NCBI RefSeq assembly: GCF_000012285.1
Contig: NC_007181.1
Location: 1,650,001-1,682,000 of the forward strand
Source of the DNA: Sulfolobus acidocaldarius DSM 639
Lineage (GTDB): Archaea; Thermoproteota; Thermoprotei_A; Sulfolobales; Sulfolobaceae
Direction of reading: 5' to 3'
DNA length: 32,000 nt
The position numbers and the translations under genes were made by a program. Numbering within the stretch: position 1 is the first letter of the stretch; each line of letters starts with the position of its first letter. The notes beneath the pieces were generated by a model, which was not told where the DNA came from, searched no databases, and worked only from the letters and a program-made list of their open reading frames with translations. Shown here one piece after another: positions 6,601-27,928 of the stretch.

Positions 6601-8594
6601 TTAGTTTCTTGTCGTTATTACACGTCTTGTGCTGACTTGTAAACATCGCTGTTCTTGTTTTAGTTTCTTGTCGTTATTACAAAGAAGTGCAAAAAAATGG
6701 CTACGGTGTACATTGTTTTAGTTTCTTGTCGTTATTACATGCATTCATTAAAGACTTAACAATTCAAGAGTTGTTTTAGTTTCTTGTCGTTATTACAAGT
6801 TTCTTAATTTATTACAGTTATATGAACAGCGTTTTAGTTTCTTGTCGTTATTACACAATAGCCCGCAAATGTCAGTATCATCACGTTGTTGTTTTAGTTT
6901 CTTGTCGTTATTACAGATTTTATGAAACATTAACTATTTATTTTATCTATGTTTTAGTTTCTTGTCGTTATTACATTAATCAGATAGAAACTAGCAGTGT
7001 TTTTTATGTTGTTTTAGTTTCTTGTCGTTATTACACCTTCACTTATTGAAGATGGGGCTGAAACAACTTTGTTTTAGTTTCTTGTCGTTATTACTTGGTT
7101 ACTGATATTTTCTGAACTCCAGCAAATGTGTTTTAGTTTCTTGTCGTTATTACCGTTAAACAGACTAGGCTCAGGACAAGCATTCACTGTTTTAGTTTCT
7201 TGTCGTTATTACAGCCCAAATCTGTTATCTCTTTAGAATGAAATTTTGTTTTAGTTTCTTGTCGTTATTACAGAGTACCTTTACCTAACCAGAGCGTCGT
7301 ATATTATGTTTTAGTTTCTTGTCGTTATTACTGTAGTCTTGCGCAATACCTGCGCTCTTTAGCAGTGTTTTAGTTTCTTGTCGTTATTACAGAAGCTATA
7401 CAACGAGGCTATATAAATAAAATGGTTTTAGTTTCTTGTCGTTATTACGTGAAGATGTCGATAGTGACGATAGCTGAGATAGTGTTTTAGTTTCTTGTCG
7501 TTATTACAAAGTAAGCCCGATAGTCCTTAGGTCAGGATCCCTTTAGTTTTAGTTTCTTGTCGTTATTACTATATTTGGTCAAGTGTTTCTACAGCATTTT
7601 AATGTTTTAGTTTCTTGTCGTTATTACGCAGAGTCTTTCGCTACGTCTTTCAGCGTCTCAAAGTTTTAGTTTCTTGTCGTTATTACGATCACAGTAATGC
7701 GTTATATAAAAAGGCAGAATTCAGTTTTAGTTTCTTGTCGTTATTACCTTTGATCAATTACTAAATTCTGTAATTGTGCCTCTAGTTTTAGTTTCTTGTC
7801 GTTATTACGTAGAAAGTCATAACCCAAAACTTCATTTTTTTGTTGTTTTAGTTTCTTGTCGTTATTACACAGGCTGTACCAAGCTGTTAGCGATGTAGTT
7901 AATGTTTTAGTTTCTTGTCGTTATTACAGCTCCCATTAAAATCACGACCACTCCAAATATCAGTTTTAGTTTCTTGTCGTTATTACAGTTATAATCTATC
8001 TCCGGAACATTAAAATATTTTAGTTTTAGTTTCTTGTCGTTATTACATAGTTGGTGGGACGGAATGGAGAAACAGCTAAAAGTTTTAGTTTCTTGTCGTT
8101 ATTACTATAAAAAAGCATTTGCACAGTCTTGGAAACCACTATTTGTTTTAGTTTCTTGTCGTTATTACATGCTCGCCCACCAGCACACCGGACAGATCGA
8201 CATAGTTTTAGTTTCTTGTCGTTATTACAACTGAAGGAACCTTGTAGAGCGGTATGCTTTGCTTCTTCTCGTTTTAGTTTCTTGTCGTTATTACAACTGG
8301 AGCAACGTATTGTTGAATATAGCCCCTATGAGTTTTAGTTTCTTGTCGTTATTACAATGAGATATTCACTGAGGTCATGGAGCGTGAAAGTTTTAGTTTC
8401 TTGTCGTTATTACTTTCCTTATTTTTTAACGAGGGAAATGGTCAGGCTAAAAGTTTTAGTTTCTTGTCGTTATTACTACGGTAAACTGGGGAGTTAACTC
8501 AGCATCCAGTTTTAGTTTCTTGTCGTTATTACCTTTCGCATACTTCCTCGCCCTCCTTGAGATATTTTCTGTTTTAGTTTCTTGTCGTTATTAC
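669..8594 (-). CRISPR. CRISPR array 1: 133 repeats, 132 spacers
   Basis: I counted 133 copies of GTTTTAGTTTCTTGTCGTTATTAC on the plus strand (first 669-692, last 8571-8594). The period is 56-66 nt and spacers are 32-42 nt. One repeat is variant (1867-1890, ending ATTGC). The leader and TATA box lie at the right end, so the array is transcribed on the minus strand as GTAATAACGACAAGAAACTAAAAC. Confidence 0.99.
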
Positions 8595-8760
8595 TGATCC
8601 TTGCCTCCATCAATTTTACATTCTTATTTCCTGGTTTATAAATATTTTCTCTCCTTCATTGTCAATTTTGTGCCCTTAGGTACGGAAGGGAGTTTTAGGC
8701 TACACAGGGTAACCCTAAAACCATTTTACGTAAGGATACGGAAGGAAATAACATAATACC
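8595..8760 (-). promoter_or_regulatory. CRISPR leader 1 with TATA box (TTTATAAA, 8635-8642)
   Basis: This 166 bp directly abuts the last repeat and is the inverted copy of 20796-20961, with 7 differences. The palindromic TATA element TTTATAAA ends 41 nt from the first repeat in both copies, which predicts a transcription start about 20 nt before the first repeat. Confidence 0.85.
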
Positions 8761-9225
8761 ACTTCCATTTCTTTTTTTATGTTTATCCATGAATTTCTTC
8801 GATGTTCTCCTGGTAGACTAATAAGTGTATAATAAAATTCTATGAATTTTAGACAGTTTACTACTAGACTCAATGAAGCTCTTACTTTTAATTATCTAGG
8901 CATGTAATAAAATTAAAAATTTTTAAAGGTATATTTGTAACTTAAAAATTTTTATATATTACACTTTTTAACGCAGTGGACAAACTTCAATGAAGTAAGT
9001 GTAGAGGCTCACCTACTGTAACTGTTCATGAGATCCCAAGCCCTACAACATATTAAATTGTTCAAAAATAATTCCACATATGAATGTAAAGACAACTACG
9101 ACTGTGTCCTTATGACTAATAGTGGTACCACGGGATATGAACATAATGTACGTTATACCATTGCTCATTCTCCTATGTAGACCTAAACTAGAATAAGCAA
9201 ATTATCTATACTATCTTTCCGTTAG

Positions 9226-9677: not shown

Positions 9678-11693
9678 TCATAAAAACAAAAGTAGTGCTT
9701 TAGGGTATCTACAGTATTCTTTCAGGTCTCCCTCACATACGACAAGGGCAGAGGCATAACTCGAAACTAGGTTAGCCATATTGCTGAAATTATCCCACTG
9801 TATGCATTTCGGAGTTATTGGGATCAGGTAAGTGTTTTTCAGTGAGTCTATATTCTTGGGCTTGGTCTTTATTATCCCATTCCTACTCAAGACTAGGTTT
9901 GGGTGATACGCCTTATCCATGAAGTCCAGAAAAGTCGTTATTTTACACTCCTCTATGCCTTTAAGCTTGTCCACCAATAAGTAGGGGTACTCCTTTAAGG
10001 GGTCTTTGAGCTGGAAACAGTCTCCCTCACTGTTATACCTGAAGTTTCTGAGTAGAGTGAAGAAGTTCTCCGTCCCTGAGTCCCCACAGATTTTACCTTC
10101 AATTCCTTCGGGTCTGAAGGCAAATATCTTGAAGTAGTCTTCTGATGAAGGTCTTACATTAATCGTTGCGTCTACATCCCTCCAATTCTCTCTCATTACC
10201 GGTAGTGCCATATCACCGTTTGCTATATAGTATGCCAACAGGAAGGTGTCAAATATTATTTTCTCCCTTAACCTCGAGAACTCTAGTTGGTCCAACTTAT
10301 CATAGACTCTCCCTTGATATATGTTATTTATTAGTTGAATGAATTCCTCATAAGTTAACTCTTTTCCGTTCACCTTGTTTAGCGAGTCCGCTGCCCTTTT
10401 GTTAGCCTCAACAAATATGTGCACCTCAGCGGTTGACTCACTTGGACTATTTGAACTTATATTCTTGTTCATTCTACCAAACCTCCCAAAACGCTGTATA
10501 AGTGTTTCTGCATCGTTAGACGTTATATACCCTAAGTCGAGGTCAGGTATGTCGACTCCAAATGACAGGGCGTTGTTTCCAACTATCACTTTCGACTCCC
10601 TACCCACGTCTCTCTTGACGCATCTCCCATAACTTACATCTAGTCCCCATATTAGTGCTACGTCGTTCCAGGTTATTTTGTCACAGAGCTCTGCTATGTA
10701 GTACACCCTATCAAGTATAATCCCTGTCTTCTTAGTTGGTGGCTCAGCCATTGAAATGATGTAATTTACTAAAGCTTCCTGGGGGTTGCTACCTCTGTTC
10801 GAAACGTCTATGTTTGAATTACTCTGAGTAGTAGCCTGTCTTTCACCTAGGACTAAGTGAAACACCACCTTGGTCCTCTTCCGTATTACTGAGTTACCTT
10901 GTCCTGACTGAGCTGTAATTACCTTATCAAAAGTCATGGATGTAGGGGTTGCTGAGGAGAAGACTATACTATGCGGGGTCCCTAGGTACTTCCAGTAAAA
11001 CTCGACCATGTCCACCAATACATTGAGTGAGCTCCTCTCTATACCGTTATATAGGTGGAACTCATCAACAAAAAAGTAGCCATTGAAGAACCTGGAAAAA
11101 TCATTGAACAAGTTAACTAGGGTAGCTTTACTCATGTTAACTGACCTTATTCCCTTCATAGCCATCTCTATTAACTGAGACGAGTGGGGACTTTTCCCTA
11201 GGGTAGAGAGGAACATGTAAGGATATTCTGGGACTGTGAGAACAAGTAGTAACTCTTTAGGGTTAGGGATGAAATGTTCTAAGCTCTCAAACACCTCCCT
11301 CTTAGTATCACTGGTCAACTTCACAACTCTAAGCTTCACCTCTTCCTCTTCCGGAATACCCTCAGATTGGTCTACTCCCTCCACCTTAATCTTACCCATG
11401 AAGTAGTCGCCGTTGTTTGAAAACCCCATCCTTATCAATGTGTTCTTTAAGGACTCGTACTGGTCGTACACTAGGGACTTTGACGGGTATAGACCAGTTA
11501 CAGGCATACCTCTCCCTAAATTTTTAAGTAGGCTGACAATGAGGGTGAATGTCTTCCCTGATCCAGTAGGAGCCCTGAGAAGTATCCTCCTGTACTTATC
11601 GAGACTGTAGAGAAGTTCCTCCTGAAACTTACGTAGTCTTATACCGTTTACTGTCACTTTCCCCTCTTCGAGGTACACTTCCTTGACTACCAC
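9678..11693 (-). CDS. cas3: Cas3' SF2 helicase (no HD domain), type I-D
   Basis: 671 aa with a GTG start. Motifs seen: Walker A APTGSGKT, DExH-like box VDEFH, motif III FSSATP, motif VI QRFGRFGR. There is no HD nuclease domain, which fits type I-D, where the HD domain sits on Cas10d. It is the last gene of the cas10d-csc2-csc1 operon. Confidence 0.9.
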   Translation of the reverse strand: MVVKEVYLEEGKVTVNGIRLRKFQEELLYSLDKYRRILLRAPTGSGKTFTLIVSLLKNLGRGMPVTGLYPSKSLVYDQYESLKNTLIRMGFSNNGDYFMGKIKVEGVDQSEGIPEEEEVKLRVVKLTSDTKREVFESLEHFIPNPKELLLVLTVPEYPYMFLSTLGKSPHSSQLIEMAMKGIRSVNMSKATLVNLFNDFSRFFNGYFFVDEFHLYNGIERSSLNVLVDMVEFYWKYLGTPHSIVFSSATPTSMTFDKVITAQSGQGNSVIRKRTKVVFHLVLGERQATTQSNSNIDVSNRGSNPQEALVNYIISMAEPPTKKTGIILDRVYYIAELCDKITWNDVALIWGLDVSYGRCVKRDVGRESKVIVGNNALSFGVDIPDLDLGYITSNDAETLIQRFGRFGRMNKNISSNSPSESTAEVHIFVEANKRAADSLNKVNGKELTYEEFIQLINNIYQGRVYDKLDQLEFSRLREKIIFDTFLLAYYIANGDMALPVMRENWRDVDATINVRPSSEDYFKIFAFRPEGIEGKICGDSGTENFFTLLRNFRYNSEGDCFQLKDPLKEYPYLLVDKLKGIEECKITTFLDFMDKAYHPNLVLSRNGIIKTKPKNIDSLKNTYLIPITPKCIQWDNFSNMANLVSSYASALVVCEGDLKEYCRYPKALLLFL

Positions 11694-11728
11694 CTCACGT
11701 ACATACGTCTACTATCACCTCACCATAA

Positions 11729-11757
11729 GTTGAAACGTGAAAATATACACGTTCAAC
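11729..11757 (-). promoter_or_regulatory. Imperfect palindrome around an AT core in the csc1-cas3' gap (internal promoter/operator or RNA hairpin)
   Basis: GTTGAAACGTG-aaaatata-CACGTTCAAC has 10-bp arms with one bulged A. The loop reads TATATTTT on the coding (minus) strand, about 50 nt upstream of the cas3' GTG. It lies in the only sizeable gap (110 nt) in an otherwise overlapping operon. Confidence 0.3.
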
Positions 11758-11803
11758 TGTAGTAGTCTTAAGACCCCTGCAGCGATTATTCATGAATGAC
11801 ACT

Positions 11804-12571: not shown

Positions 12572-13613
12572 CTTTAGTCCCTTTCTTGGACTGTACGAAT
12601 AGCTCTATTGACTTCCTGAGGTTAATAGCGTCTTTCCAAGCCTCTAACATTATCTCATGGTCTATGTTACCGTTGTCTGTCAGTTTCTTTACCACTAGGT
12701 CTCCTAAGTCATCGAAAGTGTACACTAATCCCTCCTTACTGAAGTTCTTCACCCTCTCCCTTACCTTTGCGTTCACCTGGTCTACACTGTCCAGACCCTT
12801 AGCGCTGTTGAATAGGTCTAAGCCAGATGACATTTCATAAGGTGATAGTATTACAGCGGGTATCCTTATTTTTACTTTACCGAAGTCTGTGGTATTACCG
12901 CCTATCCTCGCAGTTGTCGCTAAGGACAAAACCAATACACTGAACTCAGCCGGTGTTACGTCCTTCATTGATACTTTACCAACAAATAAGGTACCACCCT
13001 TTACCAATGATAACCTGAATAGACTTCCAGTTCTAGTACCCTCAGTTTCTATAAATGTAGTCTTCGTCGCGTCATCAACTGCGTTAAATGTCCTGACCAC
13101 TACGCTCTTCTGCTCAGGAGTAGTAGCTATGAACAGGTCACCCTCAACTCTGCTCTTTAAGTTGTACTTAGCATCTTCAGCTACAGCAAAGCCGAACGTC
13201 ATACAGTTAGGACACTCTCTGCAAAGTCCACCCATTTTCTCTTCCTCCCTCTTAGCTGCCGATGTGGGTCTAAGCATACAGTTCCAAGGGTTGCTCTTTC
13301 CTCTTAGGGCGTCAATTTCACTTATGTGTTTGTCATAGTCTTTCCTCAATAACGCTAAAAGATTCCTCCTCCATGCCGACTGGATCTTATCATATAATAT
13401 GATTGGATATTTCTCACTTCCCAGTGTTGCTAGTGATATGTCTTCTCCTCCCTCGTGTCTTATCAATAGCTCATTTTCAGCTTGTAATGTGACATAGACA
13501 TTTACTACTCTTCCTCTTGGTATCACAGCGTTTGGGTCTTCTTTACTTAGGTTAGAAAAAAAATCAATGGCTTTATCTCCAAACAAATCCTTCACTAAAT
13601 CTTTACCTTTCAC
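12558..13613 (-). CDS. csc2: Csc2 (Cas7d) backbone subunit of the type I-D complex
   Basis: 351 aa, with a 4-nt overlap with cas10d. The Cys knuckle GGLCRECPNCMTFGFA is one I recognise as characteristic of the Csc2 family, and the length is typical of Cas7. Confidence 0.8.
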   Translation of the reverse strand: MKGKDLVKDLFGDKAIDFFSNLSKEDPNAVIPRGRVVNVYVTLQAENELLIRHEGGEDISLATLGSEKYPIILYDKIQSAWRRNLLALLRKDYDKHISEIDALRGKSNPWNCMLRPTSAAKREEEKMGGLCRECPNCMTFGFAVAEDAKYNLKSRVEGDLFIATTPEQKSVVVRTFNAVDDATKTTFIETEGTRTGSLFRLSLVKGGTLFVGKVSMKDVTPAEFSVLVLSLATTARIGGNTTDFGKVKIRIPAVILSPYEMSSGLDLFNSAKGLDSVDQVNAKVRERVKNFSKEGLVYTFDDLGDLVVKKLTDNGNIDHEIMLEAWKDAINLRKSIELFVQSKKGTKDESS

Positions 13614-16210
13614 TTTTTCTCACCACTCCTTTCGAAATATAAAAACTGTAAGTAGATCCAAGTAGTCAAGGAGTTTGCTATACGTATAGCAAGACTCCTA
13701 TCACTATTATTTTCTATATCGTATAACTTCTCAAAAATATCTCTAAGGGCAAAAAATAGTTTTGACTTGGACTCATCTCTTAATGTGTACTTGCTCTCTA
13801 GGGAACTGATTGCATCACTCACCGCCAAATTGATCCTGTCCTCCTTCTTTAGTGTTAGAGAAGAGGTCCTAAAGAATACGTCAACTCCGTCCCTGAAGAA
13901 ACCTACAACATCGTATTTGGAGGACCTTTTCTTTATTACATTGACTAGTTCTGAGGAAAGGAGATTTATTGAAGAAGATAAGGTTTCACCCATTTCACTC
14001 ACCTCTCCCATTACGAAATCTAAAAAATTTAAATAACGTAAAATTGAGTCGTAAAATTGTTTATTCTCGTCCATTACGGAACCTATTCCCAACCCAAACG
14101 CTATTACAAAAAGTGAGGGGTCAACGGCGTAGTACAAGTCAGATTCCTCCACCATGGAGTTAACGCAATTTTCAATATCACTACCCCTACAGATACTCAC
14201 AAGTGCCTCATACTTAGACTTATATGCTAACAATATGAGCAATGTTCTGTAGTTAACGTCTTTCCTCTCCTTACTGTACGTCATCCAGCTGTAGTTGAAG
14301 ACCGAGTCCACCTTGATCTTACCCTCTTCCATAGGGATGTTCATTATTGTAGACGAGATAAAGACAGGTGAAGCAAGATATACTATGGAAAGTAGTGGAA
14401 CATACCTCATGAGATCATTTACATCAGTTTTGCTTAACCTAGTGGAAATTCTGATATCCTTATCTGTGAAATGCCTATAGGGAACTAGTATCTTTGAACT
14501 CAAGTAACTGACTATTAAGTTTTGGTCTGACCCACTCTTGATATCACCACCGCTACTCTCGAATACATCATAGTAGTATGAGTTTTCCTCAATCATTTGA
14601 AACACATCTCCCTCGTAATCATTACCTACATTTATTGACTCCAAGAGCCTTATCGGTATACCAGGGTAAAAGGAAACTAGTGCGAAAGGTGGTTTTGAAA
14701 CTTTAGAGAGATAGCCTGCCTCAAAGTTACATATTGGGCAGATTTTCCAGTCATCTCTTAGCCTGTCTATGTCATCCATAGCCTTAGCCCTCGGGATGAA
14801 GATCTCTACTGTTCCACCCCTAGCGCCTATAGAGAATCCATATTGGGTAAATCTTGCACTCTCCTCATATATTGGCATACCACAAACTATACAGTAGGAC
14901 ATGGGTTCTTTGACAACCTTTGACAGATCATCTTCAATGTCTCCTCCGAAGGATTTCTTTACAAACGAGAGCAGATTTTGGTCTATAGTCTCTCTCTTCT
15001 GTCCATATAGTTTCTTTAAGACAGGGATTAACTTCTCTAATAATTCCTCAGACTTGAAGGTCTTTACATATTCTTTTGCCTTCCCTAAGCCCAGCTCTTT
15101 CTTGATCTGGTCTTTCTTATTGGACTTCTCAGCAAAGTACAATATTAAAGCCCAAGGCGCTACATCTTTGTACTCTGCCACCAGATCGTCAATAAGCTTC
15201 GAGACACTCTCTGGCTTAAGCAGACCAACTAAGTCCTCAAATGGCTTGCATATTTTTGAGGGGAAAATGGAATTGGGTATTTGTTTTACTCTCTCTTCGT
15301 CGTCTATAACTTCTGGTTTGAGTTCCAACTCTTTGAAAATATCTATGTTCTTTTGTAGGCATTTGTTCAAGTTTTCCTTCACATTGTTTAAATTGTCCTC
15401 ACTGCCAGAGCCATACATTATCTCTTCCATCACATTATACACTTTTGACAGAAATATCGGTTGGGAGTTCACCCTTGAGAGGTAAACTAACCCGTCGGTA
15501 TAGGAGATTAATGGGACAGCCTCTGACTTCAACTGTTCTACCAAACGCTTGGAGGCAATAAGTGTGAATAACCTGGGAGAAGAAGATAAAGTCCTCAACT
15601 CAATTCCGTACACACTTTTCAGAGCATTTATAGCCTGTAAATAGCTGGGAGAGTTCATGAAGTAATAGACATCGTTAACACTCCTGATATCGCTTATCAT
15701 CAACATGTCCCCTAACTTCACTGCTATCCATAGGGGTAGATGTAGAGTATCTGGTAGTGGACCCTCAGCAGTAAGGGCTATCCTCCTTATAAAGAGGTCA
15801 GGTTTAATATTGGGGTTCTTAGTTAGCTCAGCTATCCTTGTTATTATAGCCCTTGCTTCCTCCTCTTTTTTAGCCATTCTGTCCTCCTTATTTTGAACAG
15901 ACTCATCTTCACCGGGTAACTTATTCCAGTCATGGATAAACCCGCCAAAGAAGCAGAGTTGCTCCCATGGTATGGAATATGTTTTAGAAAGAGTATCAAG
16001 AGTCGTCTTACCTGTATCACTCATTTCATAGATTGTCCTACATATCTCGTAAGCTATAGTGCCAACTGATATTGTGTGGAACGCGAAGCTCTGTGGAGAA
16101 CGGACTTTAGCCTCTCTGACACCTTCCTTGAACGTGATGGAGCTCAAAGCAGTTTTCACTAAATCATTGTATTCCATAATAGTTGTATCCTTCTCCACAT
16201 ATAAAAACAT
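13610..16210 (-). CDS. cas10d: Cas10d (Csc3) large subunit with an N-terminal HD nuclease domain, the type I-D signature
   Basis: 866-aa ORF. HD motifs are present (FHTISVG ... GGFIHDWNK), as are Zn-ribbon-like Cys pairs (SYCIVCG ... KICPICN). The true start is probably ATG 16177 (MEYNDLV...), because a strong TATA box, TTTTTATAT (16199-16207, minus strand), lies inside the first 11 codons of the longest ORF, about 26 nt upstream of that ATG (leaderless mRNA). Confidence 0.85.
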   Translation of the reverse strand: MFLYVEKDTTIMEYNDLVKTALSSITFKEGVREAKVRSPQSFAFHTISVGTIAYEICRTIYEMSDTGKTTLDTLSKTYSIPWEQLCFFGGFIHDWNKLPGEDESVQNKEDRMAKKEEEARAIITRIAELTKNPNIKPDLFIRRIALTAEGPLPDTLHLPLWIAVKLGDMLMISDIRSVNDVYYFMNSPSYLQAINALKSVYGIELRTLSSSPRLFTLIASKRLVEQLKSEAVPLISYTDGLVYLSRVNSQPIFLSKVYNVMEEIMYGSGSEDNLNNVKENLNKCLQKNIDIFKELELKPEVIDDEERVKQIPNSIFPSKICKPFEDLVGLLKPESVSKLIDDLVAEYKDVAPWALILYFAEKSNKKDQIKKELGLGKAKEYVKTFKSEELLEKLIPVLKKLYGQKRETIDQNLLSFVKKSFGGDIEDDLSKVVKEPMSYCIVCGMPIYEESARFTQYGFSIGARGGTVEIFIPRAKAMDDIDRLRDDWKICPICNFEAGYLSKVSKPPFALVSFYPGIPIRLLESINVGNDYEGDVFQMIEENSYYYDVFESSGGDIKSGSDQNLIVSYLSSKILVPYRHFTDKDIRISTRLSKTDVNDLMRYVPLLSIVYLASPVFISSTIMNIPMEEGKIKVDSVFNYSWMTYSKERKDVNYRTLLILLAYKSKYEALVSICRGSDIENCVNSMVEESDLYYAVDPSLFVIAFGLGIGSVMDENKQFYDSILRYLNFLDFVMGEVSEMGETLSSSINLLSSELVNVIKKRSSKYDVVGFFRDGVDVFFRTSSLTLKKEDRINLAVSDAISSLESKYTLRDESKSKLFFALRDIFEKLYDIENNSDRSLAIRIANSLTTWIYLQFLYFERSGEKK
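16199..16207 (-). promoter_or_regulatory. TATA box of the interference operon (cas10d)
   Basis: TTTTTATAT on the minus strand is centred about 26 nt upstream of ATG 16177. This is the usual spacing for leaderless Sulfolobales transcripts. Confidence 0.55.
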
Positions 16211-16288: not shown

Positions 16289-16954
16289 ATGAGTGTAACA
16301 AAAAAGGCATTAGCATTTACCATGGGTTTCACAATCGAGAACCTAGTGAAGGCTATCACAAACAGAGGCATTAACGAGAACGAACAGGTGGTACTGCTCT
16401 CTGTACTCTCAACAGACGAATTCAACAAGAGGAGGTCAGAGGAGGCTATAAGATTCGCCATTGACTATATATCAAAACTAGGGTTAAAATATTTTATTAA
16501 ATATATTGACATTAGTACTTCTTATGAAATGATAATCTCACAGATCCATGAGGTTTTGAGGGACTTCGATGAAGTGGAAATTTACATAATAGGAGGGATG
16601 AGAATATTAGGTCTAGCTTCATATTACTATTCCATTTTGATTTCTCCGTTCAAAAAGATAAGGACAATCTCGTTCACAGAGAACATGGACAACTCGTATG
16701 AACTAATTATAAGAGTACCTAAACCACCGGAGAGCAAAGAGATGATTGAGTTGATGTCTGAGCTGACCCAAATGAGGGAAATAAGGGAGGTCGCATCTAG
16801 GTTAAATAAGACTGTCTCTACTATATCTAAGCAACTGAGCAAAATAAGTGACCTAGTGGAGTGTACAGAAAAGAGACCGAAGATGTGCAAACTCAACGAA
16901 TTAGGGAAGATCCTTCTGGATGAGATGATCAGGCTTGACAGGAGAGGTAGATAA
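16289..16954 (+). CDS. csa3: Csa3-type CRISPR locus regulator (CARF-like N-domain plus winged HTH)
   Basis: 221 aa. The Rossmann-like N-terminal half carries the IIGGMR motif typical of Csa3/CARF proteins, and the C-terminal part is HTH-like (IREVASRLNKTVSTISKQLSKI). It is divergent from the interference operon and immediately upstream of cas6. Confidence 0.8.
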   Translation: MSVTKKALAFTMGFTIENLVKAITNRGINENEQVVLLSVLSTDEFNKRRSEEAIRFAIDYISKLGLKYFIKYIDISTSYEMIISQIHEVLRDFDEVEIYIIGGMRILGLASYYYSILISPFKKIRTISFTENMDNSYELIIRVPKPPESKEMIELMSELTQMREIREVASRLNKTVSTISKQLSKISDLVECTEKRPKMCKLNELGKILLDEMIRLDRRGR

Positions 16955-16955
16955 G

Positions 16956-17798
16956 ATGTATAAGCTTGTGAAGATTAAGGTAAATATACCTACCCCGTTT
17001 ATCACTAATGATTACACAGGGAAGTTTGTCAAGACTGTCCTCATAAATGCCAACCCCGACCTCCAAGAAGTTTTCGAAGGTAAGAAAAAAGTTCAGCCTA
17101 AACCTATGAGAGTTACTTCGCTGTTGGACGAAAACAACGAAGCGGTATACCCTAAGCATATAGTTAACCGATTTGAGATGGACCATAAGCCCAATCTACC
17201 TCCTAAGCCAATTACCATAAAGGGAAAGTTCTCCTTCTATTTGGGATATGATATGTCTCTGGAGCCAGAGGTGAGTAAGGTCATGACGTCTCTGTTCAGC
17301 GGTCTACAAATGAAGTACGGTGAGTTTAACGTAGAGCTTAAGGCTATTGAATATAATCAAGTTGAATTTGATAATTTCCCATCAGAGTTCTCGCAGATAA
17401 AGGTGAAACTGATTACACCATCTATGTTCAAGGACCCCTTTGAGAAGTTGGCTGATTTAGACCGAGTTAAGTATAGGAGATATCTCCCTTTCCCGGCGTT
17501 TATCTTTTCAACTAATGTATTTGAAATTTTCAGGGAGACGTACAAGAGGAATATAATAAGGTTATCGTACGGGCTGTTAGAGTCGCACAACAACCTTAAT
17601 ACTGTGAGGAAGGTCTGGTACTATTATGACGGGAAATGGTTACCGGGTGTAGTCGGTTATTTGAAGTTCTTTGTAAGGAAAGGATTGAGAAAGGAGGTGA
17701 TGAACATTTTTAGGGAGATATTCATTCACGCCAACATTATGGGGGTAGGGACAGGGAGAGCTGCTGGATTCGGGTTCGCAGAGATTACCGCTAAATGA
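16956..17798 (+). CDS. cas6: Cas6 pre-crRNA endoribonuclease
   Basis: The C-terminal glycine-rich loop GVGTGRAAGFGFAEI is the Cas6 hallmark (GhGxxxxxGhG). I prefer ATG 16956 (MYKLVKIKV), which is preceded by GGAGAGGT and starts 1 nt after the csa3 stop, over the track's TTG start at 16935. Confidence 0.9.
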   Translation: MYKLVKIKVNIPTPFITNDYTGKFVKTVLINANPDLQEVFEGKKKVQPKPMRVTSLLDENNEAVYPKHIVNRFEMDHKPNLPPKPITIKGKFSFYLGYDMSLEPEVSKVMTSLFSGLQMKYGEFNVELKAIEYNQVEFDNFPSEFSQIKVKLITPSMFKDPFEKLADLDRVKYRRYLPFPAFIFSTNVFEIFRETYKRNIIRLSYGLLESHNNLNTVRKVWYYYDGKWLPGVVGYLKFFVRKGLRKEVMNIFREIFIHANIMGVGTGRAAGFGFAEITAK

Positions 17799-20770: not shown

Positions 20771-20795
20771 CTTTTATCATAATTAATAAATTTTG

Positions 20796-20961
20796 GGTAT
20801 TATGTTATTTCCTTCCGTATCCTTACGTAAAATGGTTTTAGGGTTACCCTGTGTAGCCTAAAACTCCCTTCCGCACCCCAGGGAACAAAATTGACAATGA
20901 AGGAGAGAAAATATTTATAAACCAGGAAATAAGAATGTAAAATTGATGAAGCCAACGATCA
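20796..20961 (+). promoter_or_regulatory. CRISPR leader 2 with TATA box (TTTATAAA, 20914-20921)
   Basis: Inverted copy of 8595-8760 with 7 differences in 166 nt. It directly abuts the first repeat of array 2, and the TATA box ends 41 nt before the first repeat. Confidence 0.85.
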
Positions 20962-23900
20962 GTAATAACGACAAGAAACTAAAACATCTTCTCTGTCCTC
21001 TACTACTTTCTGCTCTTCTTTGTAATAACGACAAGAAACTAAAACTGAAAAGTTCATAAAAAAGTACCCTAACGTAGAACAGTAATAACGACAAGAAACT
21101 AAAACAATTTTATGATATCGCTTTTGTTCAAGGAAACATGTAATAACGACAAGAAACTAAAACAATTCTAAGTGCACAAGAAGGACTAGAAGAGGCAGGC
21201 CTGTAATAACGACAAGAAACTAAAACTAATGCCCAGTAACATAGATGCCTCCTTGATTATGTAATAACGACAAGAAACTAAAACAATTTGGATTGACGTC
21301 ACCTCAAGATCTATTACCTGTAATAACGACAAGAAACTAAAACATATTTAAGCCTTACTCTTTACATTAAAAGTAACAAGTAATAACGACAAGAAACTAA
21401 AACTCGACGTTAGTCTTAGATTTTTATCATTTTTAGGTGTAATAACGACAAGAAACTAAAACTTGTGCTCTTTAATGTCAAACAGTGTGATCTATTGTAA
21501 TAACGACAAGAAACTAAAACACAGTGCATGAAGTAGCATCATATGTCGTAAGTGAGTAATAACGACAAGAAACTAAAACTCTCTGGGTTAAGTGCAAAGA
21601 GCACTGGGATTACAAGTAATAACGACAAGAAACTAAAACCAACAAGGCTGAGAAGATAGCAAAGAAGCTAGTAGTAATAACGACAAGAAACTAAAACTAC
21701 AATAATTTCAGATTTCCAGTAAATGATACAAATTCGTAATAACGACAAGAAACTAAAACTTGTCATTAAACTGACAACTTTGTCTCTGACCCAAAGTAAT
21801 AACGACAAGAAACTAAAACAGTAGCGGTATACAAAAATGTATTTGTTGTGATAGTAATAACGACAAGAAACTAAAACTGGCTCACAGGCATTAATACCTG
21901 CAAAGCCTAGGGTAATAACGACAAGAAACTAAAACAAAAGTTTGCCAATTTAGGTGCTGTGCAGGAAGCATTTAGTAATAACGACAAGAAACTAAAACGA
22001 ATAATTGTAGATCAGCCATCAACTTCCACACGGTAATAACGACAAGAAACTAAAACAGAAAATGAGTAGTGAGATAAAGACAAAAAATAAGTGTAATAAC
22101 GACAAGAAACTAAAACAATTTCTATATAATCCAAGAGACACAGAGAGGTTTCTACGTAATAACGACAAGAAACTAAAACTACATTACTTTTAGAAATATA
22201 GTATGAGCGTAACATAGTAATAACGACAAGAAACTAAAACCAGTACACAAAGTGGATAGGAAAAGTCAACAATGTAATAACGACAAGAAACTAAAACATC
22301 GTATATTATATTGGGGCAGAAAAAATGAATGATGTAATAACGACAAGAAACTAAAACCAGGTTCAATTTCAGTAAATAATGGCATTACAATGTAATAACG
22401 ACAAGAAACTAAAACAACATCAGACTTTTGCACTTTTATTAGAAGGCTTTGGAGTAATAACGACAAGAAACTAAAACGATACATTGCATATATTGGCAAT
22501 CAGCAATACAAGTAATAACGACAAGAAACTAAAACACTATATATTGTTTGGAGCTTATCATAAACTTCATCGTAATAACGACAAGAAACTAAAACCTGAA
22601 TAGAGAGATGATAGAAGAAACGGTAAGTAGTAATAACGACAAGAAACTAAAACTCAGCCTCTAATTCTGCTGCAACTTCCATCAATTTCCTTGTAATAAC
22701 GACAAGAAACTAAAACATTAATTCCAAAGGACATTGAGAAGAAATTTGGCTTAAAGTAATAACGACAAGAAACTAAAACATATGAGCAACAGCAACTCAA
22801 ATCTTTATATGAAGTCGTAATAACGACAAGAAACTAAAACCACCAAAGAGTTTTTGTCCAAAGCCTTTTATGGAGTAATAACGACAAGAAACTAAAACCA
22901 GTCTCAATGTCTTTATGAGACAATTCTATATCCAAGTAATAACGACAAGAAACTAAAACGCACTTCTACTTGCTTAACGCTATAGCAAGCAAGAAGTAAT
23001 AACGACAAGAAACTAAAACGTTCATCAACCTCATGCTGAGTAAGACTATTAGTATGTGTAATAACGACAAGAAACTAAAACCTCGTATTCGTAAAAGCCC
23101 TCGTGGGTGGTGACGATGTAATAACGACAAGAAACTAAAAACTTTACAACTAATTTTTTCAGGAAAACAAATTGAAGTAATAACGACAAGAAACTAAAAC
23201 TATGTCTTAGATAGTTGAAAAAGCTAAAGCTTTTGTAATAACGACAAGAAACTAAAACGAATGTGTCCCCCTAGAGGTTTTCACCAAACAACCAGTAATA
23301 ACGACAAGAAACTAAAACAAAAAACCTTTAACCTCTATCGAATGCTGTCAAAAAGTAATAACGACAAGAAACTAAAACAACGTTACGACCACTACTACTC
23401 AGAAGAAGATAGTGTAATAACGACAAGAAACTAAAACGAGGGATGAAGGCAAATCAGTATCAGCAATAGTAGAGGTAATAACGACAAGAAACTAAAACGA
23501 AGTAGAACAGCTGTTTTTCAGGATTGAAATTATGTAATAACGACAAGAAACTAAAACAAGAGAATACTTTCTCGCCTCAGCAAGAATCGTATCAATGTAA
23601 TAACGACAAGAAACTAAAACGTATGTGGGAGAGCTTTATGAGTGGTAAGACACACGTAATAACGACAAGAAACTAAAACATGCAGGTACTATACTGAGCC
23701 TGATGAACAGCAGTAATAACGACAAGAAACTAAAACAAATTTAAGGAAAATGGAGTGTATGTATATAAATGTAATAACGACAAGAAACTAAAACCTCAAT
23801 TATTTTCAATGCTTTTTCTTTTTCGTTGTGTAATAACGACAAGAAACTAAAACACATCAGCACTTATGGATACTACGCCATGCTCATCTGTAATAACGAC

Positions 23901-25586
23901 AAGAAACTAAAACACTATTACTTTTGAAAATATGTAGATAAGACTGGTGTAATAACGACAAGAAACTAAAACTTACAGTTGTTCCGTTAGGAAGTATATA
24001 GTTACTGTAATAACGACAAGAAACTAAAACAAAATAATCATAAAACCCGAGCATTACGAAGAATTGAGTAATAATGACAAGAAACTAAAACTGTAAAGGA
24101 CTTCTTAAAAAGGTTAGAGGGGTTTCTCGTAATAATGACAAGAAACTAAAACGTAATTATTCTGATGGGTGCTATAATCTCGATGGCGTAATAACGACAA
24201 GAAACTAAAACAGCGATTAGTTTAGTCGAATTAGCTATTGCGACTTGTAATAACGACGAGAAACTAAAACATGGGATCCTGATAATTCGGCATCAGCACA
24301 ATTCGTAATAACGACAAGAAACTAAAACCTCTTCATTTGTCTCGTGAAATATAGGGTTTTTCAGTAATAACGACGAGAAACTAAAACATAGGGTAGTTCA
24401 CAAAGAGCCAGCCCTCGTCAACGTAATAACGACAAGAAACTAAAACCTTTACGTAGTAGTTATAGAGCTTCGTTACGTGCTGTAATAACGACAAGAAACT
24501 AAAACCTTGAACCATTGAACCTGCGATTGCAGGGATTAAGTATGTAATAACGACAAGAAACTAAAACGCTGACTGGGGGTGAGCCAGAAATGAAGACTGG
24601 AAGGTAATAACGACAAGAAACTAAAACTAAAATTAGTCTGCTGGCCAATTAAGAACAAACTCTGTAATAACGACAAGAAACTAAAACGTGCAACAGGGTG
24701 AAACATAGATGAGCACATTTTTGTAATAACGACAAGAAACTAAAACATTATGCTCATTATCTCTGATTTCGACCTTAAAGCGTAATAACGACAAGAAACT
24801 AAAACCTACATTGTCCTGAAGTCCTAACTTCTTTAATTCCTTGTAATAACGACAAGAAACTAAAACTTTTTATTTTCAGTAGCTATCACCATAGTAGCCC
24901 TAAAAGTAATAACGACAAGAAACTAAAACTACTCCCCAGGCTTACCCAGCAAGAAGAGGAAGCCTTGTAATAACGACAAGAAACTAAAACTAGGAGGAAA
25001 ATATAGGAATATAAAGATAGTACTAGTAATAACGACAAGAAACTAAAACTAGGAGGAAAATATAGGAATATAAAGATAGTACTAGTAATAACGACAAGAA
25101 ACTAAAACTAGGAGGAAAATATAGGAATATAAAGATAGTACTAGTAATAACGACAAGAAACTAAAACTAGGAGGAAAATATAGGAATATAAAGATAGTAC
25201 TAGTAATAACGACAAGAAACTAAAACTAGGAGGAAAATATAGGAATATAAAGATAGTACTAGTAATAACGACAAGAAACTAAAACCATTTTAGCTCAAGC
25301 ATCACCAGCATCAATTGAAAGGTAATAACGACAAGAAACTAAAACACCGTTCCGTAGATATTATTACTGTAACTCCCTCCCGTAATAACGACAAGAAACT
25401 AAAACACTGGGCTCCCCGTGATCACTCCAGGTCCTTATGTTGGTAATAACGACAAGAAACTAAAACGACGCTAAAAAGCAAGAACAACAATCACAACAAT
25501 CGGTAATAACGACAAGAAACTAAAACTTTCTTAGTGAATCCCATGTACGTATATCTAATTTAGTAATAACGACAAGAAACTAAAAC
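20962..25586 (+). CRISPR. CRISPR array 2: 78 repeats, 77 spacers
   Basis: I counted 78 copies of GTAATAACGACAAGAAACTAAAAC (first 20962-20985, last 25563-25586), with spacers of 33-39 nt. Variant repeats start at 23118 (extra A, or C24A), 24068 and 24129 (C8T), and 24247 and 24364 (A12G). Confidence 0.99.
24967..25261 (+). repeat. Five tandem identical repeat-spacer units (59 nt x 5)
   Basis: The spacer TAGGAGGAAAATATAGGAATATAAAGATAGTACTA occurs five times in a row: 24991-25025, 25050-25084, 25109-25143, 25168-25202 and 25227-25261. Confidence 0.98.
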
Positions 25587-25627
25587 ACTGTAACTATTTA
25601 AAATAGAATGATGAGAGAATGACAAAG

Positions 25628-25978
25628 CCTTGCCGTTTATGGCGAGGTAAAGGTTTCTACTTACGAGAGAAAAGTTGTTATTAAGAGGAAGCCCGTAAGA
25701 GCATGGGTCAGTCAGTGTGTGTCCCTCTTTCCTGGTACATATCCCTGAGTCTCGAGGAGCGTGGAGTTAGGGCAACTCCACCAAAGGGATAGGGGTTGAG
25801 TGGCTGAAGGCTCAGCCAGTGGTCTACCACTGAAAGAGTGGAGCGGAGCGGGCTTCTGAGCCCACTAGCTATGAAGTGATAAAAGTGAAGGTGATAAACT
25901 ACAGACCTGTGAACTGCCCTAGGTAACCCTCACTCTTTAGAGCGAGGAGGAAGTCAGTATCACACCAGATGCTGTGAT
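25628..25978. ncRNA. Candidate structured RNA or structured DNA element (unclassified); a G+C-rich hairpin cluster
   Basis: Seven local hairpins fall within about 350 nt: 25628-25647, 25741-25790 (enclosing the perfect 8-bp stem 25761-25781), 25802-25817, 25818-25831, 25850-25863, 25928-25947 and 25959-25978. 36 of 60 nt are G/C in 25801-25860, against 18 of 60 in 26221-26280. All plus-strand frames I translated hit early stops, the longest open stretch I found is about 78 codons on the minus strand, and the ORF track lists nothing here. Strand and class are undetermined. Confidence 0.3.
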
Positions 25979-26837
25979 GTCTGTTGCAACCTTAATTGCA
26001 ATTGTATCCGACGAGACTGTCATGGGAATCATTCAAACTTAGAATACATAGATCCTCAATTCATCCTCTCCAATCATATGTCTAGATTTTAGCCCAATCT
26101 CTCATTGAAGAGTTTAAAAGGGCTAAGAGGAGAAGTAGAGAAGTATCCACGAAACCTACTTGTCTGGGCTACTAAAATACAACACAAATATATTAGAGGA
26201 GAGTAGAAACGCCACGGAGATTACTAAGAAGCTGGGTGATAAATTGTTAACTAAATGCATGTTTAAAGGCAAAAAAGAGAGTGCAGAAAAAAATCAAAAG
26301 AAATAGTTAACTTCCTGGTTAATCATAAGGAAGTATTTTCATTTAAAACTAACTGTCAAAGAAAAGTTGTAACCATTAGGACTTAACGTTATTGACCCGG
26401 AAGAGAAACAACAAAATCTAGGATTTAGTGTTATCAGTTTATCATGGAGCGAGCATAACATTCCGAGCATAACATTTTAAATAAACTTTACCCATAAGAT
26501 TGTAGAAATCTCGTGGGTAAAGCATTTGTTAGAATATGCACTCCACCCTTAGGATTGCCTTAAGAAAGAAAATAATAAGTTCACATAAGCCGACTAGAAC
26601 TTGAATAGGACATGGCTTATGAACAGGTCTTCTGTCAAGTGTCAGTGTGCTCATTACATGTGTTAATTTACAACTTCCCCTAACGCCAAGTATAGTCAAG
26701 ATATTACAAATCCTAAGAATCATGGAAACCACATGACTATTCTCTAGCTAGAGGACAGTAGAATAGAGCTTCCCCGTTCATAACTCTTAACTTAACGTTT
26801 ACGTTAAATTTTTAGACCTAGATGCGTATACATAATT

Positions 26838-27062
26838 ATGTCAGACGTAATTAGTGTAAGAGTAAGAAAAGAATTGAAGAGGAGGGCTGAGGAGTTGGGA
26901 ATTAACCTGAGGGAAGTTGTGGAGAGGGCACTTGAGGAGGCTATAAGGAAAAAAGAGATGGAGAGGGTTAGGACTATAGCTAAAAAGATCCAGGAAAATA
27001 TGCAGGGTATAAGTGAGGAGGAGTGGGCTCAATTAGTCAGGGAGAGTAGGGATGAGAGGTAA
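26838..27062 (+). CDS. vapB: VapB-type antitoxin (ribbon-helix-helix-like)
   Basis: 74 aa. The N-terminus ISVRVRKELKRRAEELGINLREVVERALEE looks like an RHH DNA-binding fold. It overlaps the downstream PIN gene by 11 nt. Confidence 0.75.
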   Translation: MSDVISVRVRKELKRRAEELGINLREVVERALEEAIRKKEMERVRTIAKKIQENMQGISEEEWAQLVRESRDER

Positions 27063-27447
27063 ATTCCTTTTTGACGCTTCAGCAATATACCCCTTAATCA
27101 AATTCGTTGATAAGGTGGACCTAAAGAACATTTACATACTACATTTAACTTTATATGAGGTAGGGAATGCAATATGGAAAGATGCTTTTCTACACGGGAG
27201 GATTAAGAACGCTAAAGAAGTAGCCCTCCTCTTCCAACAGTTAATGGGAGAGTTTAACATCATCGACGACCCTCCTCTGGACGAGGTCATAGGAATAGCT
27301 ATAAGTAAGGGCATTACATATTACGATGCTTCTTATGTCTACGTCTCTGCTAAGGAGAAATTGATATTAGTGAGCAACGACAAAGAGCTCATCTCTAAAG
27401 GTAATACTATATCCTTTAACGAGTTTATGGAAAAATATCTCGCCTAA
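27052..27447 (+). CDS. vapC: VapC PIN-domain toxin
   Basis: 131 aa. The acidic PIN quartet is at the expected spacing: D8 (FLFDAS), E36 (LYEVGN), D92 (YYDASY), D110 (SNDKEL). Confidence 0.85.
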   Translation: MRGKFLFDASAIYPLIKFVDKVDLKNIYILHLTLYEVGNAIWKDAFLHGRIKNAKEVALLFQQLMGEFNIIDDPPLDEVIGIAISKGITYYDASYVYVSAKEKLILVSNDKELISKGNTISFNEFMEKYLA

Positions 27448-27456
27448 ACGACTAAG

Positions 27457-27480
27457 GTAATAACGACAAGAGAAAAATAC
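27457..27480 (+). repeat. Orphan degenerate CRISPR repeat
   Basis: GTAATAACGACAAGAGAAAAATAC matches the array repeat at 20/24 positions (the first 15 nt are identical) and has the same orientation as array 2. It lies 1870 nt after the last canonical repeat and 9 nt after the vapC stop. Confidence 0.85.
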
Positions 27481-27928
27481 GCATAATATTTTGTACAGAA
27501 TGAGCAAGACCTAATTGCCACGGTTAGATATAGTAGTCAACAATGTTAAATACTCCTACTGACTTTCTCCCAGAGGGCGAGGCTTGTCGCTCCTTTATGT
27601 CATGTTCTCTACCAAGGCTCATACACCTAGAGTCCTCTCCTCTTTTAATAAACCTATGTGCTCTTGAGGGATAATCGTCTAGTTAAGAAGGTGTGTGGTT
27701 GAGAGTGCTACGACGAGGCTAGAGATTTTGTCATGCCTAGGAGAGACAGTCCCTGTGACTAATGTGGACTAGGAGATACAGCCTCTTTCGTTTTTATTTT
27801 TCAGGGATTTTAGCTTAAACCAACGAGATCCAACATGTCTTGTGTGTCATTTGGGTTAATCGAGTATGATACATGAGAGGTTAGGTTGTCTGACTCGGCT
27901 GGTTTGACCATTTGAGTACATAAACTTT

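Follow-up and report, generated by a model that had tools for sequence, protein, structure and literature searches.

CRISPR arrays and the orphan repeat

The window analysed here is a 32,000-nt stretch of the Sulfolobus acidocaldarius DSM 639 genome. It carries a type I-D cas locus (Csc2, Csc1, Cas3', Csa3 and Cas6, the last at 16935-17798) and two CRISPR arrays, whose leaders are inverted copies of one another flanking the cas cassette. The arrays, their leaders and a lone repeat-like sequence are placed as follows.

669-8594: array 1, 133 repeats, with a perfect distal repeat at 669-692
8597-8780: leader of array 1, beside the cas cassette
20790-20961: leader of array 2, adjoining cas1
20962-25586, + strand: array 2, 78 repeats of GTAATAACGACAAGAAACTAAAAC with spacers of 33-39 nt
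25563-25586, + strand: last canonical repeat of array 2, perfect
27457-27480, + strand: orphan degenerate repeat GTAATAACGACAAGAGAAAAATAC, identical to the array repeat at nt 1-15 and at 20 of 24 positions overall

The placement of the leaders indicates that array 2 is read on the + strand and that position 25586 is its leader-distal end, an orientation that the sequence-only reading of this DNA had assumed. One spacer in the distal part of array 2 is present in five copies here and in two copies in strain LPRH01, and this difference in repeat-unit copy number shows that recombination is ongoing at that end. Array 1 showed no homology to relatives' loci on its left flank.

We scanned both strands of the window for sequences with up to 7 mismatches to the 24-nt repeat. 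The scan returned all 211 array repeats (133 in array 1 and 78 in array 2), the orphan 24-mer and one 7-mismatch match inside a spacer; on both strands of the 32-kb window, the orphan is the sole match outside the arrays with 6 mismatches or fewer. This confirms the 20/24 match, the identical first 15 nt and the array 2 orientation that had been claimed for it, and the coordinates bear out the claimed spacing: the orphan starts 9 nt after the vapC stop and 1870 nt after the last canonical repeat at 25586, a gap to be compared with the 32-42 nt that spacers normally measure here. That the resemblance is fortuitous has a negligible probability. The 3' 9 nt match the repeat at only 5 of 9 positions in A-rich sequence and are not significant alone, but an exact 15-mer is expected only about 6e-5 times in 64 kb, and this one is unique, lies beside an array and has the same orientation. 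Chance is effectively refuted by that expectation and that uniqueness, and on this comparison the 24-mer truly derives from the S. acidocaldarius CRISPR repeat, in array orientation.

The four changes are not spread evenly, since all of them fall within nt 16-22. The chance that four mismatches would all lie in the last 9 nt is C(9,4)/C(24,4), or about 0.012, and such 3' clustering is the pattern of leader-distal degenerate terminal repeats. Across the 211 array repeats, nt 16-23 are invariant. The last 8 nt of the orphan read AAAAATAC and those of the canonical repeat ACTAAAAC, a difference at 3 of 8 positions, and the base preceding the expected Cas6 cut is changed from A to G. The orphan lacks a neighbouring repeat at the normal spacer distance (32-42 nt), and no match of at least 13/24 rises above chance on either side. 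We regard it as very probably left over from the end of some array and without function.

The block between array 2 and the orphan repeat

The 1.87 kb between the two repeats had been described as a hairpin cluster, ORF-poor DNA and an intact vapBC pair, and all three were seen again in G+C, ORF and domain analyses. The block is made up of these features.

25587-25608: 22-25 nt separating the last repeat from the left end of the IS remnant, perhaps a spacer remnant or trailer
about 25609-25957, + strand: G+C-rich element, an internally deleted, ISSis2-like IS200/IS605 element
25627-25647, + strand: left-end hairpin of the IS remnant, the left end being retained but shortened
25732-25923, + strand: tail of a tnpB pseudogene, the last ~65 codons with two in-frame stops, omega-RNA scaffold region
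25927-25947, + strand: right-end hairpin of the IS remnant
25948-25957, + strand: conserved right-end tail AGGAAGTCAG
25958-26788, no strand assigned: ORF-poor DNA, in which homologues, Pfam matches and repeat remnants were not found
26789-26815, + strand: candidate vapBC control region, an inverted repeat overlapping a TATA-like box
26838-27062, + strand: vapB antitoxin, 74 aa, ribbon-helix-helix type
27052-27447, + strand: vapC toxin, 131 aa, PIN domain

At 25700-25850 the G+C content rises to 0.54-0.58, from about 0.3-0.4 in the surrounding DNA. In blastn searches about 225 nt of this element were 77-78% identical to IS200/IS605 copies annotated in the virus SMV1 and in the plasmids pHVE14 and NC_021914, and in tblastn it matched aa 367-430 of the 435-aa SMV1 TnpB with 49% identity (E 3e-12). 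The left end aligned to the SMV1 IS with a score of 50 (shuffles, 22 ± 4; z about 7), 17 covarying pairs were found between the remnant and its homologues, and the right-end hairpin followed by the GGAGGAAGTCAG tail is identical in form to those of the annotated copies. Neither a tnpA signal nor most of tnpB is present in it. With only TnpB aa 367-430 left, two stops and no tnpA, it is a remnant or a non-autonomous derivative. By these alignments, the G+C-rich "hairpin cluster" is a dead IS200/IS605 derivative, an orphan omega-RNA scaffold, an identification that should aid annotation.

The element has much in common with IS200/IS605 remnants, palindrome-associated elements (PATEs) and the sotRNA, HgcC and omega-RNA of tnpB (PMC4615843): it has both end hairpins, an "RE-like tetraloop" followed by GGAGGAAGTCAG, a motif that trails tnpB genes in many archaea, and the 3' coding tail of tnpB as omega-RNA scaffold. 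Unlike autonomous IS200/IS605 elements, it has neither tnpA nor an intact tnpB, its left end is shortened, and its Rfam match to HgcC (RF00062) is weak (25.5 bits against a gathering score of 50, E 0.003). The match to sot0042 (RF02656) was weaker still (16.7 against 88), and at gathering thresholds Rfam gave no matches in the whole window. Assignment of the element to RNase P, SRP or another housekeeping RNA was unsupported, the sequence being an IS200/IS605 tail.

The IS remnant makes up a small part of the 1870 nt, about 350 nt. The segment at 25958-26837 contains no ORF longer than 72 codons, leaving about 830-880 nt of non-coding DNA, and its six-frame fragments were without Pfam matches. 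No homologues of the ORF-poor stretch were found in plasmid or phage collections, in which the block as a whole and its proteins gave the IS match alone. Nor were decayed repeats found at 25587-27456, where 14 matches of at least 13/24 were counted and shuffled sequences led us to expect 17.6.

The two genes that follow overlap by 11 nt. VapB matches the NCBIfam family TA_anti_VapB_Sulfo with E 3e-10, its 40 bits falling short of the 60-bit cutoff, and Pfam CcdA with 24 bits. VapC is annotated as a VapC family toxin, lies just above the Pfam PIN cutoff (24.1 against 23.6 bits) and has homologues with 48-58% identity in Saccharolobus, Acidianus and Metallosphaera; in an alignment with 11 homologues the acidic residues D8, E36 and D92 are invariant and D110 is nearly so. 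The genes are thus predicted to form an intact type II VapBC toxin-antitoxin (TA) pair. The upstream inverted repeat has arms at 26789-26798 and 26801-26810 (9/10 complementary, 2-nt gap), and the TATA-like box TTAAATTTTTAG is found at 26804-26815, 23-34 nt before the vapB ATG; we infer that they represent a putative vapBC promoter and operator. A suggestion that the last four codons of vapC (KYLA) derive from a spacer was weakened by the homologue P0147, which ends in EKYLKNNN.

Pairs of this type are commonly interspersed with the CRISPR-Cas cassettes of Sulfolobales, in variable regions rich in transposable elements (PMC4390879), in agreement with the earlier remark that TA pairs are known near such cassettes. 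The present pair resembles them in its ribbon-helix-helix antitoxin, PIN toxin, overlapping genes and position adjoining CRISPR-Cas (PMC4390879); it differs in that it lies beyond the distal end of the array and not among the cas genes, and in that its homologues in other genera are not near arrays and have no trailing repeat.

Small CRISPR arrays occur on Sulfolobales plasmids and viruses. The block could have arrived as a circular mobile element carrying a repeat or mini-array, vapBC and the IS200/IS605 element, which would have integrated at the terminal repeat of array 2, with later decay of the distal repeat. Integration by homologous recombination would leave two flanking direct repeats, and the structure is indeed exactly repeat-block-repeat in direct orientation; moreover, the closest IS matches are on the conjugative plasmid pHVE14, the plasmid NC_021914 and the virus SMV1, and a TA module is typical plasmid cargo. 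We consider this origin improbable all the same, because remnants of an integrase or replication gene were not found in the block and no plasmid or virus homologue was found for the 880-nt stretch or for vapC, whose best plasmid match, in a haloarchaeon, has 29% identity. In addition, S. solfataricus has its vapC homologue on the chromosome, about 6.5 kb away from the FAD-DUF1177 operon, a location that hints that vapBC belongs to the FAD-DUF1177 neighbourhood.

Downstream flank and history of the locus

Beyond the orphan lie the following features, up to and including the DUF1177 gene.

27559-27602, - strand: miniature IS200/IS605-derived element of 44 nt, the 5' half of a left end fused to the right-end tail GGGAGAAAGTCAG
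27605-27928, no strand assigned: intergenic DNA shared with SUSAZ, ~61% identity
27929-28819, - strand: DUF1177 gene

The hairpin of the 44-nt element is partly deleted, and 28 nt of it are 92.9% identical to the left end of the pHVE14 IS. The element is located at the breakpoint of homology to the relative SUSAZ, where DUF1177 is 95% identical and homology to the window resumes only at 27595-27605. The SUSAZ locus is without array, cas genes and vapBC, and a lone repeat persists there with the same orientation, at a distance of 1.6 kb from DUF1177; this repeat differs from the canonical one only at nt 24 and is fused to a 75-aa N-terminal fragment of Csx1 (TIGR01897, E 1e-8). Since this repeat occupies an equivalent position by DUF1177, an array end beside that gene is, on this comparison, ancestral. 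More distant relatives have FAD-DUF1177-M20 without CRISPR, which marks the trailer as a rearrangement-prone junction; an M20 peptidase pseudogene 3' of DUF1177 was not found.

We think it rather probable that the orphan is the 3'-degenerate terminal repeat of the array 2 lineage, separated from it by an inserted or recombined mosaic block. A CRISPR array, most likely of the array 2 lineage, would have ended beside DUF1177 in a 3'-degenerate terminal repeat, and the block of about 1.87 kb would then have entered the array trailer or the last spacer by insertion or recombination, bringing together an IS200/IS605 element, which later decayed, some 830-880 nt of non-coding DNA and a self-contained vapBC. 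By the logic of IS200/IS605 insertion, the DNA from 25958 onward would already have been contiguous with 25587-25611, and with this contiguity the remainder of the block needs a mechanism other than IS insertion. We infer that the array once continued directly into the orphan, that events took this order and that the repeat has no present function.

The sequence-only reading had likewise proposed that a TA-carrying segment was inserted, or recombined, between the array and its terminal repeat. This stood in so far as the orphan is a genuine repeat derivative, its mismatches cluster at the 3' side, the block is a mosaic with a dead IS and SUSAZ has an array end at the same place. An array running straight into a degenerate repeat was found neither among the S. 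acidocaldarius strains retrieved nor in SUSAZ, and the IS accounts for only part of the block. In the synteny comparison, all the S. acidocaldarius strains retrieved carried the identical 1.87-kb block and orphan, which correspond to about 1,900,173-1,902,066 of CP046615.1, and SUSAZ lacked the whole locus; these strains are near-clonal here, so that conservation of the orphan is uninformative on selection. Two metagenome scans, which looked for the orphan and the canonical repeat, gave 0 matches.

The orphan could instead be all that is left of another, older array, with array 2, the cas cassette and the IS remnant/vapBC trailer placed beside it later. The last repeat of array 2 and the distal repeat of array 1 are both perfect, so that these arrays do not need a degenerate terminal repeat, and SUSAZ offers an array cut down to a single repeat at the same place. 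Several arrays also share this repeat family, among them one of Sulfolobus sp. E1 (1 mismatch), where the contig ends inside the array. Nevertheless, the orphan has the orientation of array 2 and carries the S. acidocaldarius repeat variant, no further decayed repeats or spacers are found on either side of it, and an extra event is required; we hold this alternative to be unlikely. Under it, nothing would have been inserted between array 2 and its own terminal repeat. A separate, older array may just as well have ended in the orphan, a point that was counted against the history of separation by a mosaic block.

Taken as a separated terminal repeat, the orphan has the features expected from degenerate terminal repeats and interrupted Sulfolobales arrays, being array-derived, in the same orientation, degenerate at its 3' side and on the trailer side; the variable region around it has many transposon remnants and recombining repeats (PMC4390879). 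It departs from degenerate terminal repeats in lying 1870 nt off, not one spacer away, and the block is not a single recognisable mobile element. The orphan has the look of a commonplace trace of rearrangement in the genome, not of a new regulatory device. If it is a relic, the locus offers a small, clean example of how dead IS200/IS605 elements and TA modules come to make up mosaic array trailers in Sulfolobales.

Possible coupling of vapBC to the CRISPR-Cas system

CreTA, with an RNA toxin repressed by Cascade, was reportedly described by Li et al. in 2021, a work cited by Shmakov et al. By analogy, the orphan might be a functional standalone repeat of the type I-D system, retained for that reason. 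In one version, Cas6 would cut read-through transcripts that include vapBC at the orphan, as the sequence-only reading had raised, or may bind its intact 15-nt 5' half and set their 3' end; in the other, a cr-like RNA starting at the orphan may tie vapBC to the type I-D effector and link VapBC addiction to the presence of CRISPR-Cas, as a crenarchaeal counterpart of CreTA with a protein TA. TA cargo at standalone repeats and mini-arrays has been described, notably in type I-D loci (Shmakov et al. 2023, doi 10.1101/2023.03.03.530964), and a repeat beside a TA pair is accordingly not as unusual as had been stated. The orphan is like them in lying outside the array, at a type I-D locus and beside TA cargo, with nt 1-15 intact. 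T-runs are few between array 2 and vapB, with only one T5 run on the + strand from the array end to vapB, so that transcriptional read-through from array 2 is possible.

The remaining evidence goes the other way. Three of the 8 tag positions (ACTAAAAC to AAAAATAC) and the cleavage site are altered by the four changes, in a part of the repeat that does not vary in the arrays; that the tag has 8 nt is a rule taken from PMC4390879. The repeat is single, with no partner found at spacer distance, unlike mini-arrays, and unlike CreTA it has no spacer with partial complementarity to a promoter in the locus: the 37-mers flanking the orphan gave complementarity of 21-23/37 at best within the 32-kb window (20-25 after shuffling), with no promoter match. 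Whereas CreTA has an RNA toxin, the TA pair here is the protein VapBC with its own candidate promoter and operator; homologous pairs elsewhere do without a repeat, and the arrangement is absent in SUSAZ. Sequence evidence points away from the repeat being a functional handle of Cas6 or Cascade with a link to vapBC, and we rate such a function as very improbable. If true, it would extend the CreTA/mini-array idea to a protein TA in Crenarchaeota.

The DNA beside the repeats was also compared with viral sequences in search of a split spacer. An exact-pattern scan of viral contigs with the 18-mers beside each repeat gave, for the left flank, matches of 19-20 nt at chance level, and blastn of both repeat flanks against isolated phages and viruses gave chance matches only. 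A 26/26 match of the right flank was rejected as a Sulfolobus protospacer, the contigs being those of proteobacterial myophages. The non-assigned nucleotides beside the two repeats (22-25 and 9) add up to 31-34 nt, near the spacer length of 32-42 nt, which is only numerology.

The arrays and the repeat beyond vapC

The two CRISPR arrays of the window have one 24-nt repeat in common, with spacers normally of 32-42 nt:

669-8594, array 1, 133 repeats, reading GTTTTAGTTTCTTGTCGTTATTAC on the + strand
20962-25586, + strand, array 2, 78 repeats of GTAATAACGACAAGAAACTAAAAC

Between them lies a type I-D cassette whose members include Cas3', Csc1/Cas5, Csc2/Cas7, Csa3, Cas6, Cas2 and Cas1, and in which an 866-aa ORF without family match holds the Cas10d position. 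The cas-proximal flanks of the arrays (8597-8780 and 20790-20961) are inverted copies of each other and are the array leaders; their positions imply that array 2 is transcribed on the + strand and that 25586 is its leader-distal end.

The sequence-only reading had described, in the orientation of array 2, an orphan repeat that lies 1870 nt past the array and 9 nt past the vapC stop and matches the array repeat at 20/24 positions with the first 15 nt identical. All of this was confirmed for 27457-27480 (GTAATAACGACAAGAGAAAAATAC), the vapC stop being that of a 131-codon ORF. The orphan is the sole non-array match with up to 6 mismatches on both strands of the window, where chance would give an exact 15-mer about 6e-5 times, and its distance from the last canonical repeat compares with 32-42 nt for normal spacers. 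All four mismatches fall within the final nine positions (for random placement, P = C(9,4)/C(24,4) = 0.012), and such clustering at the 3' end is a familiar mark of leader-distal terminal repeats. Weaker copies were not above chance in the 1.87-kb block between array and orphan or downstream of it (14 matches of at least 13/24 versus 17.6 expected), which rules out that the block is a decayed array stretch. We conclude that the orphan is genuine but an ordinary relic, in a mosaic region of known kind.

A split-spacer search on the orphan and array flanks failed. The 26 nt preceding the orphan (27431-27456, the vapC end plus 9 nt) are identical (26/26) to proteobacterial myophage contigs, where they fall in a 1651-aa ORF; about 1e-4 such matches would be expected by chance, and no biological explanation was found. 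The likeness is taken as an unexplained coincidence, since the vapC tail EKYL is present again in a homologue and these 26 nt have no Sulfolobus virus match; they were not accepted as a Sulfolobus-virus spacer.

Other observations concern the arrays themselves. Array 2 has, close to its distal end (24967-25285), five identical repeat-spacer units in tandem (spacer TAGGAGGAAAATATAGGAATATAAAGATAGTACTA), compared with two in strain LPRH01000011, which also has four additional spacers; the difference in tandem copy number indicates unequal recombination between repeats. In array 1, one 37-nt spacer is present twice, 419 nt apart (1111-1147 and 1530-1566), a non-tandem duplication, and the spacer at 5011-5046 includes AAACTAAAAC, the final 10 nt of the repeat in opposite orientation, which may be fortuitous (expectation about 0.2) or reflect spacer acquisition from a CRISPR array. 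The repeat family reaches beyond S. acidocaldarius, as Sulfolobus sp. E1 (QFWF01000115) carries a Cas1 84% identical to that of the window, adjoining an array with a one-position variant of the repeat (GTACTAAC...).

An IS200/IS605 remnant and vapBC in the block

The G+C-rich hairpin cluster of the block is a dead IS200/IS605 element, at about 25609-25957. When the segment was compared by blastn with plasmids and phages, only 25736-25962 matched: it is 77-78% identical over about 225 nt to the 3' ends of IS200/IS605 elements annotated in Sulfolobus virus SMV1, conjugative plasmid pHVE14 (ISSis2 family) and plasmid NC_021914. By tblastn, residues 367-430 of the 435 of SMV1 TnpB aligned to 25732-25923 (49% identity, E 3e-12) with two in-frame stops, and 25600-25690 aligned with the SMV1 element's left end at a score of 50 (shuffles, 22±4). 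The pattern CTTTAGN5GGAGGAAGTCAG, scanned across species-representative genomes, occurred at 29 loci, 23 of them archaeal, and at several the ORF directly 5' has an OrfB_IS605 or Cas12f1-like TNB domain. A consensus fold from an alignment with four homologues has 17 pairs preserved through double changes. The remnant therefore keeps the left end, an omega-RNA scaffold with the tnpB tail and the right end; tnpA and some 85% of tnpB are gone. In an Rfam search at E-value threshold, the element matched HgcC (25.5 bits, E 0.003) and sot0042, a haloarchaeal sense-overlapping transcript, both below threshold. They have in common a stem-loop followed by GGAGGAAGTCAG; Gomes-Filho et al. (PMC4615843) showed that IS1341-type tnpB genes and HgcC RNAs carry this "RE-like tetraloop" as a marker of their 3' end. 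By analogy with TnpB systems, the 16-20 nt past the right end (25958-25975, TATCACACCAGATGCT...) would serve a putative orphan omega-RNA as its guide; in S. acidocaldarius, a processed omega-RNA accompanies the tnpB gene Saci_1941 (PMC12817955).

Very short IS200/IS605-derived elements (about 45-110 nt) are dispersed in Sulfolobus intergenic DNA, as a single hairpin or a left-plus-right-end pair, with TTAC or TGAC in front and AAGTCAG at the end. The usual description of S. acidocaldarius is of an organism almost devoid of mobile elements. The pieces located, of the remnant and of this short family, are:

25627-25647, left-end hairpin inside the stretch aligned to the SMV1 left end
27559-27602, − strand, 44-nt mini-element, one of the short family, made of a right-end tail fused to half of a left end; identity to the pHVE14 left end is 92.9% over 28 nt
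SUSAZ (CP006977; coordinates of its locus, L003) ~906-958, 1801-1853, 11660-11770, ~12877-12908 and 13650-13690, further short elements

Azospirillum canadense and a Bacillota MAG share a nearly identical stretch of about 80 nt around the archaeal-type right-end motif, one inserted base apart, which suggests a shared element or contamination.

Past the remnant, 25958-26837 (the remaining 830-880 nt) contained no ORF above 72 codons, no Pfam match and no homologue in plasmid or phage collections. The 74-aa vapB product matches a Sulfolobales VapB model below its cutoff (E 3e-10) and also Pfam CcdA; the 131-aa vapC product, named VapC family toxin in the database, is over the Pfam PIN threshold and keeps four acidic residues. 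By inference, the region 5' of vapB holds a candidate leaderless-type promoter with a VapB operator:

26804-26815, TATA-like box, 23-34 nt ahead of the vapB ATG
26789-26798 / 26801-26810, 10-nt inverted repeat overlapping the TATA-like box

The closest non-identical vapC homologues (48-58%; Saccharolobus, Acidianus, Metallosphaera) neither adjoin arrays nor have anything repeat-like 3'. The closest, in S. solfataricus LT549890 (L037, 1-8393; 55%), lies about 6.5 kb from the FAD-DUF1177-M20 operon with several tnpB genes between, and vapBC plus this operon may be an old synteny.

Relatives and the history of the orphan

The region of interest is identical in S. acidocaldarius CP046615.1, and every S. 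acidocaldarius contig retrieved carries the identical block. In SUSAZ, whose DUF1177 is 95% identical, the array, cas genes and vapBC are absent from the locus, and one repeat (GTAATAACGACAAGAAACTAAAAG), with its orientation unchanged, lies 1.6 kb from the DUF1177 3' end. It is joined to a 75-aa N-terminal Csx1 (CARF) fragment (L003, 12503-12750) that ends in this near-perfect repeat. Within 10 kb there is neither an array nor a cas gene, and the site resembles a scar left by the loss of an entire CRISPR-Cas locus through deletion. Homology between window and SUSAZ runs from DUF1177 to about 27595-27605, ending at the mini-element. Neither S. solfataricus nor a remoter relative (DUF1177 89%) has CRISPR at its FAD-DUF1177-M20 genes, and no M20 remnant was found beside the window DUF1177. 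Thus, an array end beside DUF1177 is older than the split of DSM 639 and SUSAZ, and the array trailer is a breakpoint-rich zone strewn with IS200/IS605 debris.

The simplest reading had been that a TA-carrying segment inserted or recombined before the terminal repeat. It stands in part: the orphan is a repeat relic and the trailer holds IS debris, but the IS remnant accounts for only about 350 nt of the block, and the way in which IS200/IS605 elements insert implies that 25587-25611 and 25958 onward were already contiguous when the IS arrived. Three related histories fit the orphan: the block inserted or recombined into array 2, in its last spacer or its trailer, a repeat-bearing episome integrated at the terminal repeat, or the end of an older array survived next to a newer one. 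Adding up the unassigned nucleotides at the last array repeat and at the orphan gives 31-34 nt, about one spacer, which is weak evidence.

The proposed coupling to vapBC

A repeat-bracketed TA had been thought unusual. Standalone repeats and mini-arrays, however, regulate cas or cargo genes, and TA cargo is enriched particularly in type I-D loci (Shmakov et al., doi 10.1101/2023.03.03.530964), so that a repeat beside a TA is a known pattern and the right comparison for the orphan. The defining features of those systems are nevertheless absent here: the locus has one repeat instead of the two of mini-arrays, and the 37-mers on either side of it had no partial match above chance anywhere in the window (21-23/37, as in shuffled controls). 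Moreover, the changes in the orphan fall on the expected Cas6 cut site and on 3 of the 8 tag positions, and positions 16-23 are invariant in all 211 array repeats. The proposal that read-through and Cas6 cleavage at the orphan couple vapBC to the array is thus unsupported, and read-through itself may occur, judging from the single T5 run on the + strand between the end of array 2 and vapB.
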